64,000 bases of DNA from an uncultured Actinomycetota bacterium (GTDB lineage Bacteria > Actinomycetota > UBA4738). The notes under the pieces are model-generated. The model ran no database searches and was not told the DNA's origin. It saw only the letters and a program-made list of their open reading frames with translations. Within the stretch, counting starts at the first letter, position 1; the number at the start of each line of letters is the position of its first letter. The position numbers were made by a program, and so were the translations under genes. Positions 17,548 to 49,332 of this stretch are shown here, one piece after another. Where the stretch lies: positions 906,745-970,744 of the forward strand of contig CAVYRK010000011.1 in assembly GCA_963770955.1 (NCBI GenBank), given 5' to 3'.

Positions 17548-17584
17548 GGAAGGAAGCGTACGCCCACGCGGAGTGCCTCTTGGG

Positions 17585-17658
17585 TCGGGCCGGCGGGATT
17601 TGAACCCACGACCTTCTGACCCCCAGTCAGACGCGCTGCCAAGCTGCGCCACGGCCCG
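17585..17658 (-). tRNA. tRNA-Pro (anticodon GGG)
   Basis: Sense sequence is CGGGCCGTGGCGCAGCTTGGCAGCGCGTCTGACTGGGGGTCAGAAGGTCGTGGGTTCAAATCCCGCCGGCCCGA. It folds as a cloverleaf with a 7-bp acceptor stem, anticodon loop CUGGGGG and T-loop GGTTCAAATCC. Confidence 0.9.
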
Positions 17659-40986: not shown

Positions 40987-42273
40987 TCAGCCGGTCAGCG
41001 CCGCGAGCCGTTCGGCCGCGTCGAACGCGCCGGCGTCGTACCGGATGACCTTGCGAAACTCCTCGGCTGCCTCCGAGGAACGGCCCGCTCGCTGGAGCAC
41101 GTCGCCGGCCACGTACCAGACGCGGAGCTCCCAGGCATCGGCCTCGTCTCGGCGCCCCGGGAAGCCGCGGAGCAGCCCGAGCGCCTCGTCGTAGCGGCCC
41201 AGATCCGCGAGGGCGGACGCGCCCACGATGGCGGCCTCGGCTCGCGGCTCGTCGCGCAGGCGCGACCGAACGGCCTCCACCGCAACGGGAACGGCTTTGT
41301 CCGGCATGCCGAGTCCGCGGTACGAGTCCGCGATCAGGTGGTTCTGATCGAGGCGCCCCGTCATGCGGCGGTAGGCCTGGAGCTCTCGTAGCGCGTCGCG
41401 GTAGCGGCCGGAGCGGTAGAGGGCCACGCCGTAGAGCTCCCGCACGGCCCCCGAGCGCGGGGCGAGGCGCTTGGCGTCGGCGGCGGCATCGGCCGCGGCG
41501 CCGTCGCGCCCGCGTCGCAGCAGATCACGCGCGTGCTCGAAGGCCGCGATGGCGGCCTCTTGCTTGGCCTTCGGGGTTGCGGCGCGAATCTCCTCGATCA
41601 GGGGATCGCGGGGTCCCCGGCGGCCGGTGGCTGCACGGCGCTGGTCGGTCCCGAGCGACGTCCGCTGATGGGAGGAGGAGGGCTCGGTCCGGGAGGATCG
41701 TTCCCAGCCGGGTTGGGAATCGCGATGGTGACCCGTCGATGCGCGGCCACCGGCCGACGACCGTGACCCGCTCGTGGAGCGCGCGCTGCTCGCGCTCTGG
41801 CGCCGGCCGCCCGTGGAGCGGCCATGCGCTTCCGAGTTCGACGATTTCGATCCGGCCGTGTACCGCTTCGCCGACGACCCGCGCGCGTCCGTGGCCCGGC
41901 TTCGCCCCGACCCGGTCGGGCGCCCACTCCCGCCGCGGTCGGCCGCGGACGTCCGCCTTCCACCGCGGCCGGATGCCGTTGACCGGCTCTTCGCGCCGCG
42001 ATCATCGAAGGTCTTTCCCTTGCCGTACGACGTGCCCTTCTTCGCGTCGAATCGACCGGAGCCAGTTCGGCCGCTGGCGCCGGCGCTACGGCCGCTGGCG
42101 CCCTTGCCCGCGCTCTTGCCGGCAGTCTTGCCCGCGCCGCTTCCACGAGTCGAGCTCTTTCCGTGTCCTCCGGAGCCGCCGCGCGTCGCACCACTCGACG
42201 CGGAGCGAGCCGGCGCACCACGCCGGCTTGTCCCCGAGCCTTTCGGTCGTGGTGATGGCTTGCGGTCGCTCAT
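40987..42273 (-). CDS. TPR-repeat protein with a long basic Gly/Ser/Arg-rich N-terminal region
   Basis: ATG at 42273 (MSDRKPSPRPKGSG..). The first 240 aa or so are low-complexity G/S/R/K/T. The C-terminal 190 aa or so are TPR-like (YGVALYRSGRYRDALRELQ..). The track ORF extension to 42564 overlaps the 5S gene and is rejected. Confidence 0.65.
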   Translation of the reverse strand: MSDRKPSPRPKGSGTSRRGAPARSASSGATRGGSGGHGKSSTRGSGAGKTAGKSAGKGASGRSAGASGRTGSGRFDAKKGTSYGKGKTFDDRGAKSRSTASGRGGRRTSAADRGGSGRPTGSGRSRATDARGSSAKRYTAGSKSSNSEAHGRSTGGRRQSASSARSTSGSRSSAGGRASTGHHRDSQPGWERSSRTEPSSSHQRTSLGTDQRRAATGRRGPRDPLIEEIRAATPKAKQEAAIAAFEHARDLLRRGRDGAAADAAADAKRLAPRSGAVRELYGVALYRSGRYRDALRELQAYRRMTGRLDQNHLIADSYRGLGMPDKAVPVAVEAVRSRLRDEPRAEAAIVGASALADLGRYDEALGLLRGFPGRRDEADAWELRVWYVAGDVLQRAGRSSEAAEEFRKVIRYDAGAFDAAERLAALTG

Positions 42274-42299
42274 CGCCGGACACTCTATCCGGGAAACGA

Positions 42300-42325
42300 C
42301 AGGAGCCCCCTTTCGGGGGCTCCTG
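42300..42325 (-). terminator. rrn operon terminator hairpin
   Basis: CAGGAGCCCCC-TTTC-GGGGGCTCCTG, a perfect 11-bp stem about 10 nt downstream of the 5S 3' end. Confidence 0.6.
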
Positions 42326-42334
42326 TGCACGATG

Positions 42335-42453
42335 TCTCGGCGGCGACCTACTCTCCCACCCCGTTGCCAGGGCAGTACCATCGGCGCTGGAGGGCTTAAC
42401 TTCCGGGTTCGGAATGGGACCGGGTGTCTCCCCTCCGCAATGACCGCCGAAAC
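42335..42453 (-). rRNA. rrf: 5S ribosomal RNA
   Basis: Sense sequence is GTTTCGGCGGTCATTGCGGAGGGGAGACACCCGGTCCCATTCCGAACCCGGAAGTTAAGCCCTCCAGCGCCGATGGTACTGCC..GGGAGAGTAGGTCGCCGCCGAG. Confidence 0.92.
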
Positions 42454-42856
42454 GGTCTCTCCTCGCCGAGCCGACCCAAAGAGCCTGCCCTGCAAGGAAT
42501 CTTGCGAGGGTGCGAGCTTCGAGCCACATGCGTGGACTCGGAACTCGATAGCGAGCGCGAGCAAAGGTCAAGTCCTCGGCCTATTAGTACCGGTCGGCTG
42601 AACACGTTGCCGTGCGTACACCTCCGGCCTATCTACCTCGTAGTCTTCGAGGGGCCTTACTCCTTGCGGATGGGAAGCCTCATCTTGGGGCGAGCTTCGC
42701 ACTTAGATGCTTTCAGCGCTTATCCCTGCCGTACGTGGCTAACCAGCCATGCCGCTGGCGCGACAACTGGCACACCAGAGGTACGTCCGCCCCGGTCCTC
42801 TCGTACTGGGGGCAGCTCCCCTCAAGCTTCCTACGCCCACGGCGGATAGGGACCGA

Positions 42857-43576
42857 CACGTCTGTTACCACCGAACGGCCATCCGTTCGGGGGCCGGGTC
42901 ATTTCTGCCCGGCTCTGCATGTCGCCATGCAGGTCGGACCATATCTTCACCTCAGACCGTGAGGTGTTCGGCGTATGGTCTCTGAGGATTCTGGCTGCCT
43001 ACACACGATGGATCCGGCGATAGCGGCCGCCTCCGTTCATGGAGACTGCACGTTGCCGAAGGCATCGGAAGCCCTCTGCGCTCAGGTGCTCGCCTTGCTC
43101 CATCGCTCTCACGATGGACACGAAGGTCTCGAGCTCCTGCTGTTTCGCGCTCAGAAGGGGGTTCGTCTCGAAGAATGGGATGACCCTGGTCAGAAGGTCG
43201 GTTCGCTTGCGAACCACGTACACCAGCGTCGCGTCGGCCGAGCCGGCATGGTTCTGCCGGATGCGGCCGCAGCCGAGGCGTCGCGCTCTCAGGTCGAGGA
43301 CCTGACGGCGCTCCGCGTTCTGGCTGACATGGAACTCAGGGACGAGTTGCCAGCCGGCAACCGTCGATGCGTTCCTCTGTACGGCGACGTGGAACGTTCC
43401 CTCCCCGTCGACGAAACCCGCGATGTAGGCATCCAGCCTTTCCTGCTGATTGACCGCACCTGACGCATTGTCACTGCACACGACGGGAAGCTAACAGCAG
43501 CCTCCGACGTGGCGAGTAGCGCAGGATGCTCGGCGTTTCCAGCATTTGGCCGAATTTAGAGACAGCAAGGTCTCCT
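42857..43576 (-). mobile_element. Group I intron in 23S rRNA after E. coli U2604, carrying a LAGLIDADG ORF
   Basis: 720-nt insertion between GAGACAGU and UCGGUCCC. The guide sequence GCUGUCUC pairs with the 5' exon GAGACAGU, including the U.G wobble. Core elements are P AAAUGCUGGAAAC, Q AAUCAGCAGG, R CCUCAGAGACCAUA and S GAAGAUAUGGUCC. The last nucleotide is G. Confidence 0.88.
42999..43481 (-). CDS. LAGLIDADG homing endonuclease (single-motif type) inside the L2604 intron
   Basis: Contains YIAGFVDGEGTF and family blocks LGCGRI, VIPFFETNPLLSAKQ and MNGGG. The ORF lies between the intron Q and R elements. An ATG in the P element (43545) is one frame off and may be the true start. Confidence 0.85.
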   Translation of the reverse strand: MCSDNASGAVNQQERLDAYIAGFVDGEGTFHVAVQRNASTVAGWQLVPEFHVSQNAERRQVLDLRARRLGCGRIRQNHAGSADATLVYVVRKRTDLLTRVIPFFETNPLLSAKQQELETFVSIVRAMEQGEHLSAEGFRCLRQRAVSMNGGGRYRRIHRV

Positions 43577-43613
43577 ACTGTCTCACGACGTTCTAAACCC
43601 AGCTCGCGTACCG

Positions 43614-43652
<39 letters not shown>

Positions 43653-43653
43653 G

Positions 43654-43694
<41 letters not shown>

Positions 43695-43913
43695 TCCGTC
43701 GATGTGGACTCTTGGGAGCGATCAGCCTGTTATCCCCGGGGTACCTTTTATCCGTTGAGCGACGGCCCTACCACGAGGAAGCCGTCGGATCACTAGGCCC
43801 TGCTTTCGCACCTGCTCGACATGTCTGTCTCGCAGTCAAGCACCCTTGTGCCCTTGCACTCGACGCCTGATTGCCAACCAGGCTGAGGGTACCTTTGGGC
43901 GCCTCCGTTACTG

Positions 43914-43950
<37 letters not shown>

Positions 43951-44202
43951 GCGCTGTCCCTGACCCGGATCACGGGTCGAAGTTAGAGTCCCAGCACACG
44001 AAGAGCGGTATTTCAAGGTTGACTCCACTCGAGCCAGAGCCCGAGCTTCAAAGTCTCCCGCCTATCCTACGCAACGCGTACCAAAACCCAACACCAAGCT
44101 GCAGTAAAGGTCCCGGGGTCTTTCCGTCCTGCCGCAGGTAACGAGCATCTTTACTCGTCGTGCAATTTCGCCGAGTCCCTGGTTGAGACAGCGCCCAAGT
44201 CG

Positions 44203-44249
<47 letters not shown>

Positions 44250-44588
44250 GGATTCTGTTACTTGAAGACCGGTCGAGGCTGCACGATCCACTCGATCGGC
44301 GGGCTGGTCGTTTCCGCCAGCCTCCTCACGTCGCCGTGAGGTCCGGACCATCTCATCCTCTTCCGGGTCGAAGGAAGAGGGCCGGCATATGGTCTCTGAG
44401 GATTCCCGATCCCTATCGGAGGGCTCGGGCCTTTCCTGCTGGTTTTCCGCACCTCTCACGTTGTCACTGCCCGACTCACTCGGACGAGTAGTGGAGGATC
44501 CACCGGGTTTTCCAGCATATAGCCGGCTGCTCACCGCACCATCACTGATGCGGGGGGCAGCGCCCCCGGCCTGCCTGGGGGCTTTCCT
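44250..44588 (-). mobile_element. ORF-less group I intron in 23S rRNA after E. coli U1931
   Basis: 339-nt insertion between CCUAAGGU and AGCGAAAUUCC. It has the same P/Q/R/S core as the other two (UAUAUGCUGGAAAAC, AACCAGCAGG, CCUCAGAGACCAUA, GAUGAGAUGGUCC). A short hairpin replaces the endonuclease ORF. Boundaries are ambiguous by 2 nt because of an AG repeat. Confidence 0.8.
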
Positions 44589-44596
44589 ACCTTAGG

Positions 44597-45380
<784 letters not shown>

Positions 45381-46309
45381 CGCTTCGGTTCAGAGCTTCG
45401 CTTCCCGAAGGAAGCTAACCCATCCCCTTAACGTTCCGGCACCGGGCAGGCGTCAGTCCATATACAGCGCCTTACGGCTTCGCATGGACCTGTGTTTTTA
45501 GTAAACAGTCGCTTGGGCCTGGTCTCTGCGGCTCCCTCCAGCTCGGGACGCGAAGTCCTTCACCGGTAAGAGCCCCCCTTCTCCCGAAGTTACGGGGGCA
45601 ATTTGCCGAGTTCCTTAACCAGGGTTCTCTCGATCGCCTCGGTATTCTCTACCTGCCCACCTGCGTCGGTTTGGGGTACGGGCACCTCGAATCGCTCGCT
45701 AGAGGATTTTCTTGGCAGCATGGGATCACTCGCTTCGCCTGAAGCGGCTCGGCGTCGTGTCTCGGAGTTAGTGCCCTCCCGGATTTGCCTGGGTGGGCCT
45801 CCTACGCACTTGCCCCAGGACGACCATCGCCTGGGTCGAGCTACCCTCCTGCGTCCCCCCTTCGCTTCCCTAGTACCGAGCGGGTCGGTAGCCCCTCCAA
45901 GGTGGAGGGATTTCCTTAGCAGCTCGGATTTGGGATGGGCGCGATTGAGGTGGTACTGGAATATCAACCAGTCGTCCATCGCCTACGCCTCTCGGCCTCG
46001 GCTTAGGGCCCGACTAACCCTGGGCGGATGAACCTTCCCCAGGAACCCTTGGGCATTCGGCGGAGGGGTTCCTCCCCCGTCTTTCGCTACTCATGCCGGC
46101 ATTCTCACTTCCGACGCGTCCACGGCTGGGTTTTCCCGCCGCTTCACTCGCGTCGGAACGCTCCCCTACCGATCCCTCGACCTGGACGTACACGGTCGCC
46201 CGTGTACGCCGGGTTATTCGAGGAATCCCGCAGCTTCGGTGCTGTGCTTGAGCCCCGCTACATTGTCGGCGCGGAATCACTTGACCAGTGAGCTGTTACG
46301 CACTCTTTC

Positions 46310-46344
<35 letters not shown>

Positions 46345-46384
46345 CTGGGCAACTCCACATCCTTTCCCACTTAGCACAGACTTC

Positions 46385-46417
<33 letters not shown>

Positions 46418-46917
46418 CTCGGCTACGGAGCTTAGCCCCCGCAGCCTCACTCCCGGGCTCTTGAGTATCGGCATTCGGAGTTTGACTGAGATCGGTAAGC
46501 TTGTAGGCCCCCTAACCCAATCAGTGCTCTACCTCCGATACTGAACGCCCGAGGCTGCCCCTAAAGGCATTTCGGGGAGAACCAGCTATCACCGAGTTTG
46601 ATTGGCCTTTCACCCCTATCCACAGGTCATCCCCCAGGTTTTCAACCCTGGTGGGTTCGGCCCTCCACGAGGTCTTACCCTCGCTTCAGCCTGCCCATGG
46701 ATAGATCACTCGGCTTCGGGTCTAGAGCACGCGACTAAACGCCCGGTTAGGACTCGCTTTCGCTACGGCTTCGTCTTATGACTTAACCTCGCCACGTACC
46801 ACTAACTCGCCGGCTCATTCTTCAAAAGGCACGCCGTCACCCCCCGCTGGTTGCCCAGCGAGGTAGCTCCGACAGCTTGTAGGCTCACGGTTTCAGGTGC
46901 TATTTCACTCCCCTCCC

Positions 46918-46963
<46 letters not shown>

Positions 46964-47803
46964 GCCAGGGAGTACTTAGCCTTGGGGGGTGGGCCCCCCG
47001 GATTCACGCGGACTTGCACGTGGACCGCGCTACTCGGGAACACCACTCGGAGGCCGGTCGGCTTTCGCCTACAGGGCTGTTACCTTCTATGGCCGCTCTT
47101 TCCAGAGACATTTGGCTAGCTGTCGGCTTTGTAACTCCGTGATGGCGCTGCCGCACCATCGTGTGGGTCCCACGACCCCCGCATAGAAACGCCGGCAGGC
47201 TATCGCGCTATGCAGGTTTAGGCTCTTCCCCGTTCGCTCGCCGCTACTGAGGGAGTCGCTGATTGCTTTCTCTTCCTCGCCCTACTGAGATGTTTCACTT
47301 CGGGCGGTTCCCTCCTCATGCCCTATGTGTTCAGGCACGGGTGACTGGGCATGACCCCAGCCGGGTTTCCCCATTCGGACACCTTCGGATCAAAGCCTTG
47401 TTGGCGGCTCCCCGAAGCTTTTCGCAGCCTCACGCGTCCTTCATCGGCTCCTGGCGCCAAGGCATCCACCGTAAGCCCTTTACAACTTGACCGTTAGATG
47501 CTCGCGCTCGCTATGGAGTTCTCAAGGTCCATGCCCCGGACGCACGAGAAGACACCCTTCGGGGGCGTCTCCATCGTGGAGGTCCGTGGCTCGAGGGCTC
47601 GCACCCTCAGGACCGGACAGTGTGCCCGGCCGGCGTCCCGCCGCGTCCGCTTCCCGTTCCACTCCCGATCGCTCGGGCGTACTGGACGAAGCGTCTTTGG
47701 CGATCTTCCGGCCGAATAACCAGTGGATTGATTGGAGCTCCCGCCTCGTCGTGACCGTTCACCGCTGAACGGCTCGTCTCGCGGTCGGGATATGCCAATT
47801 GCT

Positions 47804-49332
<1,529 letters not shown>

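Follow-up and report, generated by a model that had tools for sequence, protein, structure and literature searches.

Group I introns that carry a LAGLIDADG gene are known at several positions of the 23S ribosomal RNA (rRNA) genes of bacteria. For bacteria outside the Candidate Phyla Radiation (CPR), the earlier compilations contain only the sites L1917, L1931, L1951 and L2593 (PMC1995217). In CPR genomes, 23S insertions with LAGLIDADG_1 open reading frames (ORFs) were described at positions 1917, 1931, 1952, 2593, 2604 and 2657 (PMC11270868, J Bacteriol 2024); according to that work, group I introns at several of these positions were new for bacteria, those at 2604 had not been reported in other bacteria, and the L1931 site is the source of a characterised enzyme, I-ShaI. 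Here, we analysed a 64-kb stretch of DNA from an uncultured Actinomycetota bacterium (assembly GCA_963770955.1, contig CAVYRK010000011.1; hereafter, the window), in which the 23S gene carries a 720-nt insertion after U2604. We conclude that this insertion, the L2604 intron, is very probably a group I intron that is both active and mobile: it would splice from the 23S precursor, and its LAGLIDADG enzyme would home it into intron-less 23S rDNA at position 2604. The host appears to belong to a high-G+C actinobacterial lineage, and its closest relatives by exon sequence are metagenome-assembled genomes (MAGs) of Actinomycetota.

The 23S gene of the window spans 4929 nt against the 2925 positions of the Rfam model, therefore about 2 kb must be inserted in it. 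Reading the minus strand, we found three insertions with a total of about 1.8-2 kb (Table 1). The junctions of the 720-nt insertion are ...GUCGUGAGACAGU/AGGAGACCUUGCUGUCUC at its start and GGUAACAGACGUG/UCGGUCCCUAUCC... at its end. Positions were numbered after the E. coli rrlH gene, in which GAGACAGT occupies 2597-2604 and UAUAACGGU occupies 1915-1923. By this numbering, the insertion (43576..42857) splits GAGACAGU from UCGGUCCC exactly between U2604 and U2605, such that A2602 of the peptidyl-transferase centre is only two nucleotides away; the original prediction, made from the sequence of the window, had placed the site correctly on both counts. The boundaries have no freedom to shift because the first base of the intron is A and the last is G, and the intron-less form of the site, with the exons joined, reads CGTCGTGAGACAGTTCGGTCCCTATCCGCC. 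The exons are intact and of full length, as judged from their match to the complete 23S model, which counts in favour of an active intron. An unspliced 720-nt insert beside A2602 would be incompatible with a working ribosome.

The fold of the insertion was assessed on 30 complete intron copies located at U2604 in public genomes, aligned by MAFFT blind to structure. Helices P3, P4, P5, P5a, P6, P7, P8, P9, P9.1 and P9.2, including the P3/P7 pseudoknot, were written on the window sequence and then scored on the alignment, the distal hairpins of the P5 extension lying outside the modelled structure. Standard pairs were found in 95.0% of the 1906 cells, compared with 27-38% when the partners were slid by 1-3 columns, and 41 of the 64 pairs showed two-sided (compensatory) changes; none of 500 shuffles reached the observed values on any measure. 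P3 changes across the relatives from UUCGGC/GCCGAA to UCCGGC/GCCGGA and UCUGGC/GCCAGA, and P7, the helix forming the guanosine-binding site in group I introns, from GACCAU/AUGGUC to GACUGU/ACAGUC, and P8, P9 and P9.1 are rich in compensatory changes. In the window copy, all core helices are whole save for P6, which has one A·G mismatch. For P1, the guide sequence GCUGUCUC pairs perfectly with the exon GAGACAGU over 8 bp, the last pair being U2604·G, and the GCUGUC portion of the guide is invariant in the 30 related introns. The intron has no P2: P1 is followed by UAAAU and then by P3, P5 is extended, and three hairpins come after P7. Altogether, these observations are strong evidence that the L2604 insertion carries a conserved group I ribozyme. 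The original prediction was therefore borne out in its group I assignment, in the 8-bp P1 with a U·G end and in the final G: the complementarity is perfect, the final base is G in the window and in all 30 relatives, and the covariation extends from P3 to P9.2 and includes the pseudoknot.

A search of Rfam at the gathering threshold reported only rRNA in this region and no intron. In the E-value mode, Intron_gpI matched all three insertions of the gene, with 40.1, 38.6 and 32.2 bits (E 4e-8 to 9e-6), the matches aligning the J6/7-P7-P3-P8-P7 core, UCAGAGACCAUACGCC...GAAGAUAUGGUCCGA.

The intron encodes a protein of 160 aa, and its identification as a LAGLIDADG protein in the original prediction agrees with both Pfam and structural homology. 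It matches the family LAGLIDADG_1 (PF00961) in one stretch (E 5.5e-18, 66 bits over a cut-off of 23). Its sole motif, IAGFVDGEG, with the acidic residue E27 at motif position 8, is retained in 26 of the 30 related introns. In the PDB, the best matches were domains of the I-OnuI family (E 3e-30); the single-domain 5gkk and I-Vdi141I (3e54) and also I-CeuI (2ex5) scored lower, and an I-CreI-derived chain (E 5e-15) fell far below the I-OnuI-family domains. The body of the gene lies within the loop of P6, closed by CUGGAUGCC/GGCAGCCAG, with the stop codon abutting the 3' strand of this helix. Its first ~19 codons are read from the strands of P5, P4' and P6, so that the conserved RNA segment AAUCAGCAGGAAAGG is translated as NQQER. 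ORFs extending likewise into the ribozyme core occur in cyanobacterial 23S introns (PMC1995217). Across the 30 related introns, the mean pairwise difference by codon position was 0.30/0.23/0.58; third positions are thus about twice as variable as first and second ones, from which it follows that the protein is under purifying selection. A few of the gene copies look disrupted, that of locus L094 among them, and relatives usually have ATG or GTG at the position of the start codon.

A homology search with the 160-aa protein yielded 1810 homologues at E <= 1e-3, the best 120 of which are all at least 71% identical to it; no exact match is on record. In a collection of species-representative genomes, to which the genome of the window does not itself belong, we found 34 loci with a related endonuclease gene. 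The site U2604/U2605 was identified in 32 of them (26 with both junctions and 6 more with the 3' junction); of the other two, one encodes a protein of 40% identity and belongs to an L1931 intron of a Saccharimonadales MAG, and the other has no assigned site. A scan of DNA with a pattern for the P1 hairpin added two further copies at L2604 in Acidimicrobiia MAGs, such that the same ribozyme and endonuclease gene are present at 2604 in 34 species-level genomes. The occurrence of same-site introns in different species-level genomes, long-read MAG chromosomes included, also favours an active intron. The hosts are mostly soil Actinomycetota MAGs (Acidimicrobiia, Streptosporangiaceae and long-read 'Actinomycetes' chromosomes), together with Woeseiaceae, one Dadabacteria MAG and another gammaproteobacterium; the presence of the same intron and gene across phyla indicates horizontal spread to one exact site. 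In exon sequence, the soil MAG GCA_965609595.1 (locus L098) comes closest, with 94.6% exon and 77% intron identity, and distant relatives show about 86% and 66%, respectively. Intron identity, therefore, broadly follows exon identity, which suggests substantial vertical descent as well. With these data, the anatomy of the intron, its covariation, the conservation of its site and the selection on its protein were established in this work.

The closest described counterparts of the L2604 intron are the CPR insertions at the same position ('23IS13'; PMC11270868), which share with it a single-domain LAGLIDADG_1 ORF and differ from it in host and in intron lineage. The P1-hairpin pattern also detected four differently built introns at 2604, in two Microgenomates (CPR) MAGs, an unclassified bacterium and a gammaproteobacterium. 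Those of the Microgenomates (L055 and L061) and of the unclassified bacterium (L027) likewise follow GAGACAGU and end in G, and they have the guide sequence GCUGUCUC in common with one another and with L047, for which only the 5' junction was obtained. Unlike the window intron, however, these three end shortly after P7 and do not have the P9/P9.1/P9.2 domain or the GUAACA tail. Their endonucleases are 40-41% (L055 and L061) and 45% (L027) identical to the window protein, which is no closer than the L1931 enzyme at 40%.

The L2593 introns with I-CreI-type enzymes (Chlamydomonas chloroplast; Synechococcus C9 and C1, Thermosynechococcus; PMC1995217) also have a single-motif LAGLIDADG gene and lie in the same 23S helix region. 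Their site is 11 nt upstream of L2604 and the targets would overlap in GAGACAG, but the site and the guide sequence differ, and the L2593 introns have a short P5, a short P2 and P7.1/P7.2 insertions (PMC1995217), in contrast with the absence of P2, the extended P5 and the three P9 hairpins of the window intron. Several group I introns within one 23S gene, with ORFs running into the ribozyme core, are found in Synechococcus sp. C9 as in the window; the C9 gene has three endonuclease-encoding introns at L1917, L1931 and L2593 (PMC1995217), whereas in the window the sites are L1923, L1931/1933 and L2604, one intron is ORF-less, and the three ribozymes are paralogous. As for the protein, the I-OnuI-family and single-domain structures in the PDB (I-SmaMI, I-OnuI, 5gkk, I-Vdi141I and I-CeuI) share the LAGLIDADG_1 fold with it by sequence (E 3e-30 to 2e-10), but the best matches are mostly two-domain monomers from fungal mitochondria, unlike the single-domain window protein. 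To our knowledge, no LAGLIDADG enzyme among these PDB matches targets 23S position 2604.

The other two insertions of the gene are related to the L2604 intron. Intron 1 has a canonical P1, AACGGU/GCCGUU with a U·G pair, and a terminal G. The RNA parts of the three introns are 72-85% identical, and the two endonucleases, of L1923 and L2604, are 36% identical. All three contain GCUAUAUGCUGG, AAUCAGCAGGAAAGG, CCUCAGAGACC and GAAGAUAUGGUCCGAC, a P9 capped by GCGA and a GUAACAG tail, and each of them has a guide sequence fitting its own site (e.g., GCCGUU for AACGGU at L1923). As read from these sequences, a single ribozyme scaffold has evidently spread to several rRNA sites. It is possible that the L2604 endonuclease has an uncharacterised specificity; we found no characterised enzyme for 23S site 2604. 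A fuller proposal, which we advance tentatively and with somewhat more doubt than belief, is that the clade has a new natural meganuclease specificity, with a target of ~20 bp at 23S rDNA 2594-2615, and that the three paralogous ribozymes record how a single scaffold moved to new rRNA sites by changing only the guide and the endonuclease.

Table 1. Features of the rrn operon in the window (nt, nucleotide of the L2604 intron).
Feature	Coordinates	Strand	Evidence
Group I intron (L2604), 720 nt, between U2604 and U2605	42857..43576	minus	Exon continuity; Rfam Intron_gpI 32.2 bits, E 8.6e-6; covariation in 30 related introns
Last 8 nt of 5' exon, GAGACAGU, E. coli 2597-2604, exon strand of P1	43577..43584	minus	Sequence and E. 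coli rrlH numbering
3' exon, from U2605 (UCGGUCCCUAUCC...)	42564..42856	minus	Rfam, sequence and rrlH numbering
Candidate P10 partner of 3' exon GGUC: GACC, nt 5-8	43569..43572	minus	4-bp match at chance level
Internal guide sequence GCUGUCUC, nt 11-18, forms P1 with U2604·G	43559..43566	minus	Direct complementarity
P3 5' strand UUCGGC, nt 23-28, pairs with 42967-42972	43549..43554	minus	Helix 1: 6/6 pairs, 100% of cells paired, 2 pairs compensatory
P4 5' strand UGCUG, nt 33-37, pairs with CAGCA 43444-43448	43540..43544	minus	Helix 2: invariant in 30/30, 100% paired
P5 and extension; P5 nt 43-46 with 121-124, P5a nt 52-58 with 111-118	43453..43534	minus	Helices 3 and 4: 98-99% paired, 8/11 pairs compensatory
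P6 5' strand CUGGAUGCC, nt 141-149, pairs with GGCAGCCAG 42991-42999	43428..43436	minus	Helices 5 and 6: 91% and 82% of cells paired, 6/9 pairs compensatory
LAGLIDADG homing-endonuclease gene, 160 aa, GTG start, single motif	42999-43481	minus	Pfam PF00961, PDB homology, homologues, codon diversity
P7 5' strand GACCAU, nt 597-602, pairs with AUGGUC 42937-42942	42975..42980	minus	Helix 7: 97% paired, 2 pairs compensatory; fits Rfam consensus core
P3 3' strand GCCGAA, nt 605-610	42967..42972	minus	Covariation, helix 1
P8 hairpin, nt 612-628	42949..42965	minus	Helix 8: 6/6 pairs compensatory
P9 (invariant GCGA tetraloop), P9.1 and P9.2 hairpins, nt 645-706	42871..42932	minus	Helices 9-12; P9 and P9.1 100% paired, 10/13 pairs compensatory
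Terminal guanosine (omega-G), after conserved tail GUAACA...UG	42857	minus	G in 30/30 related introns; final UG invariant
Intron 1, group I, 754 nt, after U1923 (...UAUAACGGU)	45350..44597	minus	Exon continuity; Rfam Intron_gpI 40.1 bits
LAGLIDADG ORF of intron 1, 205 aa as listed	44700-45317	minus	Pfam LAGLIDADG_1 E 7.6e-19
Intron 2, ORF-less group I, 339 nt, at 1931-1933, inside GGUAG/CGAAAUU	44248..44588; about 44588..44250 as read on the minus strand	minus	Rfam Intron_gpI 38.6 bits
23S rRNA gene	42564-47492	minus	Rfam LSU_rRNA_bacteria, model positions 1-2925, 2537.9 bits, full length
16S rRNA gene	47810-49332	minus	Same rrn operon
5S rRNA gene	42335-42451	minus	Same rrn operon

By analogy with known group I introns, the L2604 intron would be transcribed within the rrn operon, and its guide sequence GCUGUCUC would pair with the exon GAGACAGU as P1 while the P3-P9 core folds with its P5 extension and three P9 hairpins. 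The attack after U2604 would come from an external guanosine; the terminal G would enter the P7 site and the exons would be ligated to give an intact 23S rRNA. The 160-aa single-motif protein would most likely work as a homodimer, cutting intron-less 23S rDNA around 2604, and repair of the cut would copy the intron into it (homing); the protein may also aid RNA folding as a maturase. We infer splicing, cleavage and dimerisation from how group I introns and LAGLIDADG enzymes are known to behave.

Several points weigh against this reading. Splicing and exon ligation are deduced, and the genome may hold other rrn operons that are intron-less. The Rfam score of the L2604 intron (32.2 bits) is below the gathering score of RF00028 (50); we regard this as a limit in the sensitivity of the model and as no evidence against the fold, because the ORF breaks the model and even the ORF-less paralogue reaches just 38.6 bits. 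The P10 proposed in the original prediction, GACC with GGUC of the 3' exon, found no support, since 58% of shuffled P1 loops match it equally well; neither in the window nor in most relatives does it exceed chance. The alignment consensus shows that many relatives have ACCG directly 5' of the guide sequence, complementary to CGGU of the 3' exon, and a short P10 is plausible but unproven. As for the gene, no convincing Shine-Dalgarno sequence precedes the GTG, the nearest GGAGG being located ~20 nt upstream, and the true start codon is uncertain because the start overlaps a ribozyme helix. Finally, the joined-exon target is symmetric at only 5 of 11 positions; neighbouring centres score the same or higher, so that this pseudo-palindrome is uninformative and lends no support to a homodimer.

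The main rival reading is that the ribozyme splices and the LAGLIDADG protein now acts mainly as a maturase stabilising the intron RNA, with no homing, the intron being inherited vertically with occasional reverse splicing. The rough parallel of intron and exon identity described above would fit such a long vertical descent, and a maturase-like LAGLIDADG protein has been reported for a 23S intron of Thermotoga (PMC3984707); the overlap of the ORF with strands of the ribozyme core and a target with no clear palindrome also speak for it. Nevertheless, the catalytic acidic residue of the motif is retained in most relatives, and the finding of one intron and gene in hosts as distant as Actinomycetota, Woeseiaceae, Dadabacteria and other Gammaproteobacteria implies that they spread horizontally to a single exact site, which is the signature of endonuclease-mediated homing. 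We consider the loss of homing, therefore, unlikely.

Much less probable still, to the point of being very hard to sustain, is that the insertion is a decayed relic that does not splice, in a dispensable or pseudogenised rrn operon, or that the 23S rRNA is simply fragmented in the manner of an intervening sequence processed by RNase III. Splicing of the L2604 intron is a prediction, the boundaries of intron 2, its ORF-less neighbour, are irregular, and further rrn copies are possible in the genome, all of which would leave room for a relic. A relic, however, is difficult to reconcile with core helices that are intact in the window copy apart from the mismatch in P6 and compensated across the family, with a full-length ORF under purifying selection, or with exons that score as a complete 23S rRNA next to an invariant guide sequence and terminal G. 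A simple stem-loop intervening sequence was ruled out because of the covarying group I core, and an assembly artefact because 30 independent contigs carry the same architecture. An active mobile intron thus remains our preferred explanation.

Intron 2 is peculiar in its boundaries. It is separated from intron 1 by just 8-10 nt of exon (CCUAAGGU[AG]). Its guide, GCUGCC, sets the U·G wobble at U1931, as in the canonical L1931 introns of relatives; the sole placement of the intron that ends in G follows G1933 (...GAAUCCAG/CGAAAUU) and would give a G-C pair at the 5' splice site. The boundary pattern was seen in 13 further genomes, where the 5' side always starts with AG; in 9 of the 13, the 3' AGCGAAA is preceded by C, U or A, not by G. 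Five Solirubrobacterales MAGs (L132, L182, L184, L135 and L166) have, at 23S position 1931, introns of the same ribozyme family that measure ~295-303 nt and contain no ORF; their boundaries are fixed and their last base is A, not G (CUCA or CACA before AGCGAAA). In a near-identical sister, L168, the ending is CUAG, and the A-ending 1931 introns have the same P7 as L168. From their sequences, these A-ending introns may be non-splicing, may use cryptic sites, or may be introns that naturally lack a terminal G. In a scan of contigs (loci L101-L219), the pattern AGTAACAG-N2-9-AGCGAAATTCC was found in at least 119 species-level genomes, therefore the ribozyme family at 23S 1931-1933 is very widespread; among the matches listed are Solirubrobacterales, Thermoleophilia, Gaiellales, Acidimicrobiia, Planctomycetes, Omnitrophota, CPR and two Bacillus. 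This family scores below the gathering threshold of Rfam Intron_gpI and is unannotated for that reason.

Around the 23S gene, the 16S-23S spacer (47493-47809, ~317 nt) has no tRNA genes, and the sole tRNA of the window is a tRNA-Pro(GGG) at 17583-17658 on the minus strand. A frame of 525 aa (40987-42564, minus strand) adjoins the 5S gene and reaches into the end of the 23S gene. Very low complexity, with much Ser, Gly and Arg, marks its N-terminal half. The true gene there is probably much shorter than this listed frame. In the closest relative, L098, a gene of 200 aa with weak TPR matches lies downstream of the 23S gene.

The original prediction did not count 2604 among the catalogued sites of insertion, and in this it was mistaken: the position has been published for CPR (PMC11270868) and is occupied by same-site relatives in 32 of 34 loci, which largely makes it the common catalogued position with orthologous introns that the prediction had itself held to be contrary to its claim. 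The site is already catalogued and commonly occupied. In the open-access literature, we found no report of site 2604 outside CPR and none on group I introns in actinobacterial 23S genes. A search for the name 'L2604' gave only irrelevant matches, PMC11270868 alone mentions position 2604, and the position is absent from a survey of archaeal group I introns (PMC6125680) and from a 2025 intron database paper. No paper was found for the PDB entry 5gkk, and I-MG11 (bioRxiv 2026), compared there with the monomeric enzyme I-SceI, was set aside as not relevant. The L2604 intron in Actinomycetota and the properties of its enzyme, then, appear to be undescribed.

The importance of these findings is modest, and views on how group I introns or homing endonucleases work are unchanged by them. 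A 23S gene with such introns is longer by about 2 kb, and they can break rRNA-based annotation and primer sites. An intron site so far published only for CPR turns out to be occupied widely, both by introns of soil Actinomycetota and by those of a few further phyla, and its introns supply a large natural pool of single-domain LAGLIDADG enzymes with a predicted target beside the peptidyl-transferase centre.

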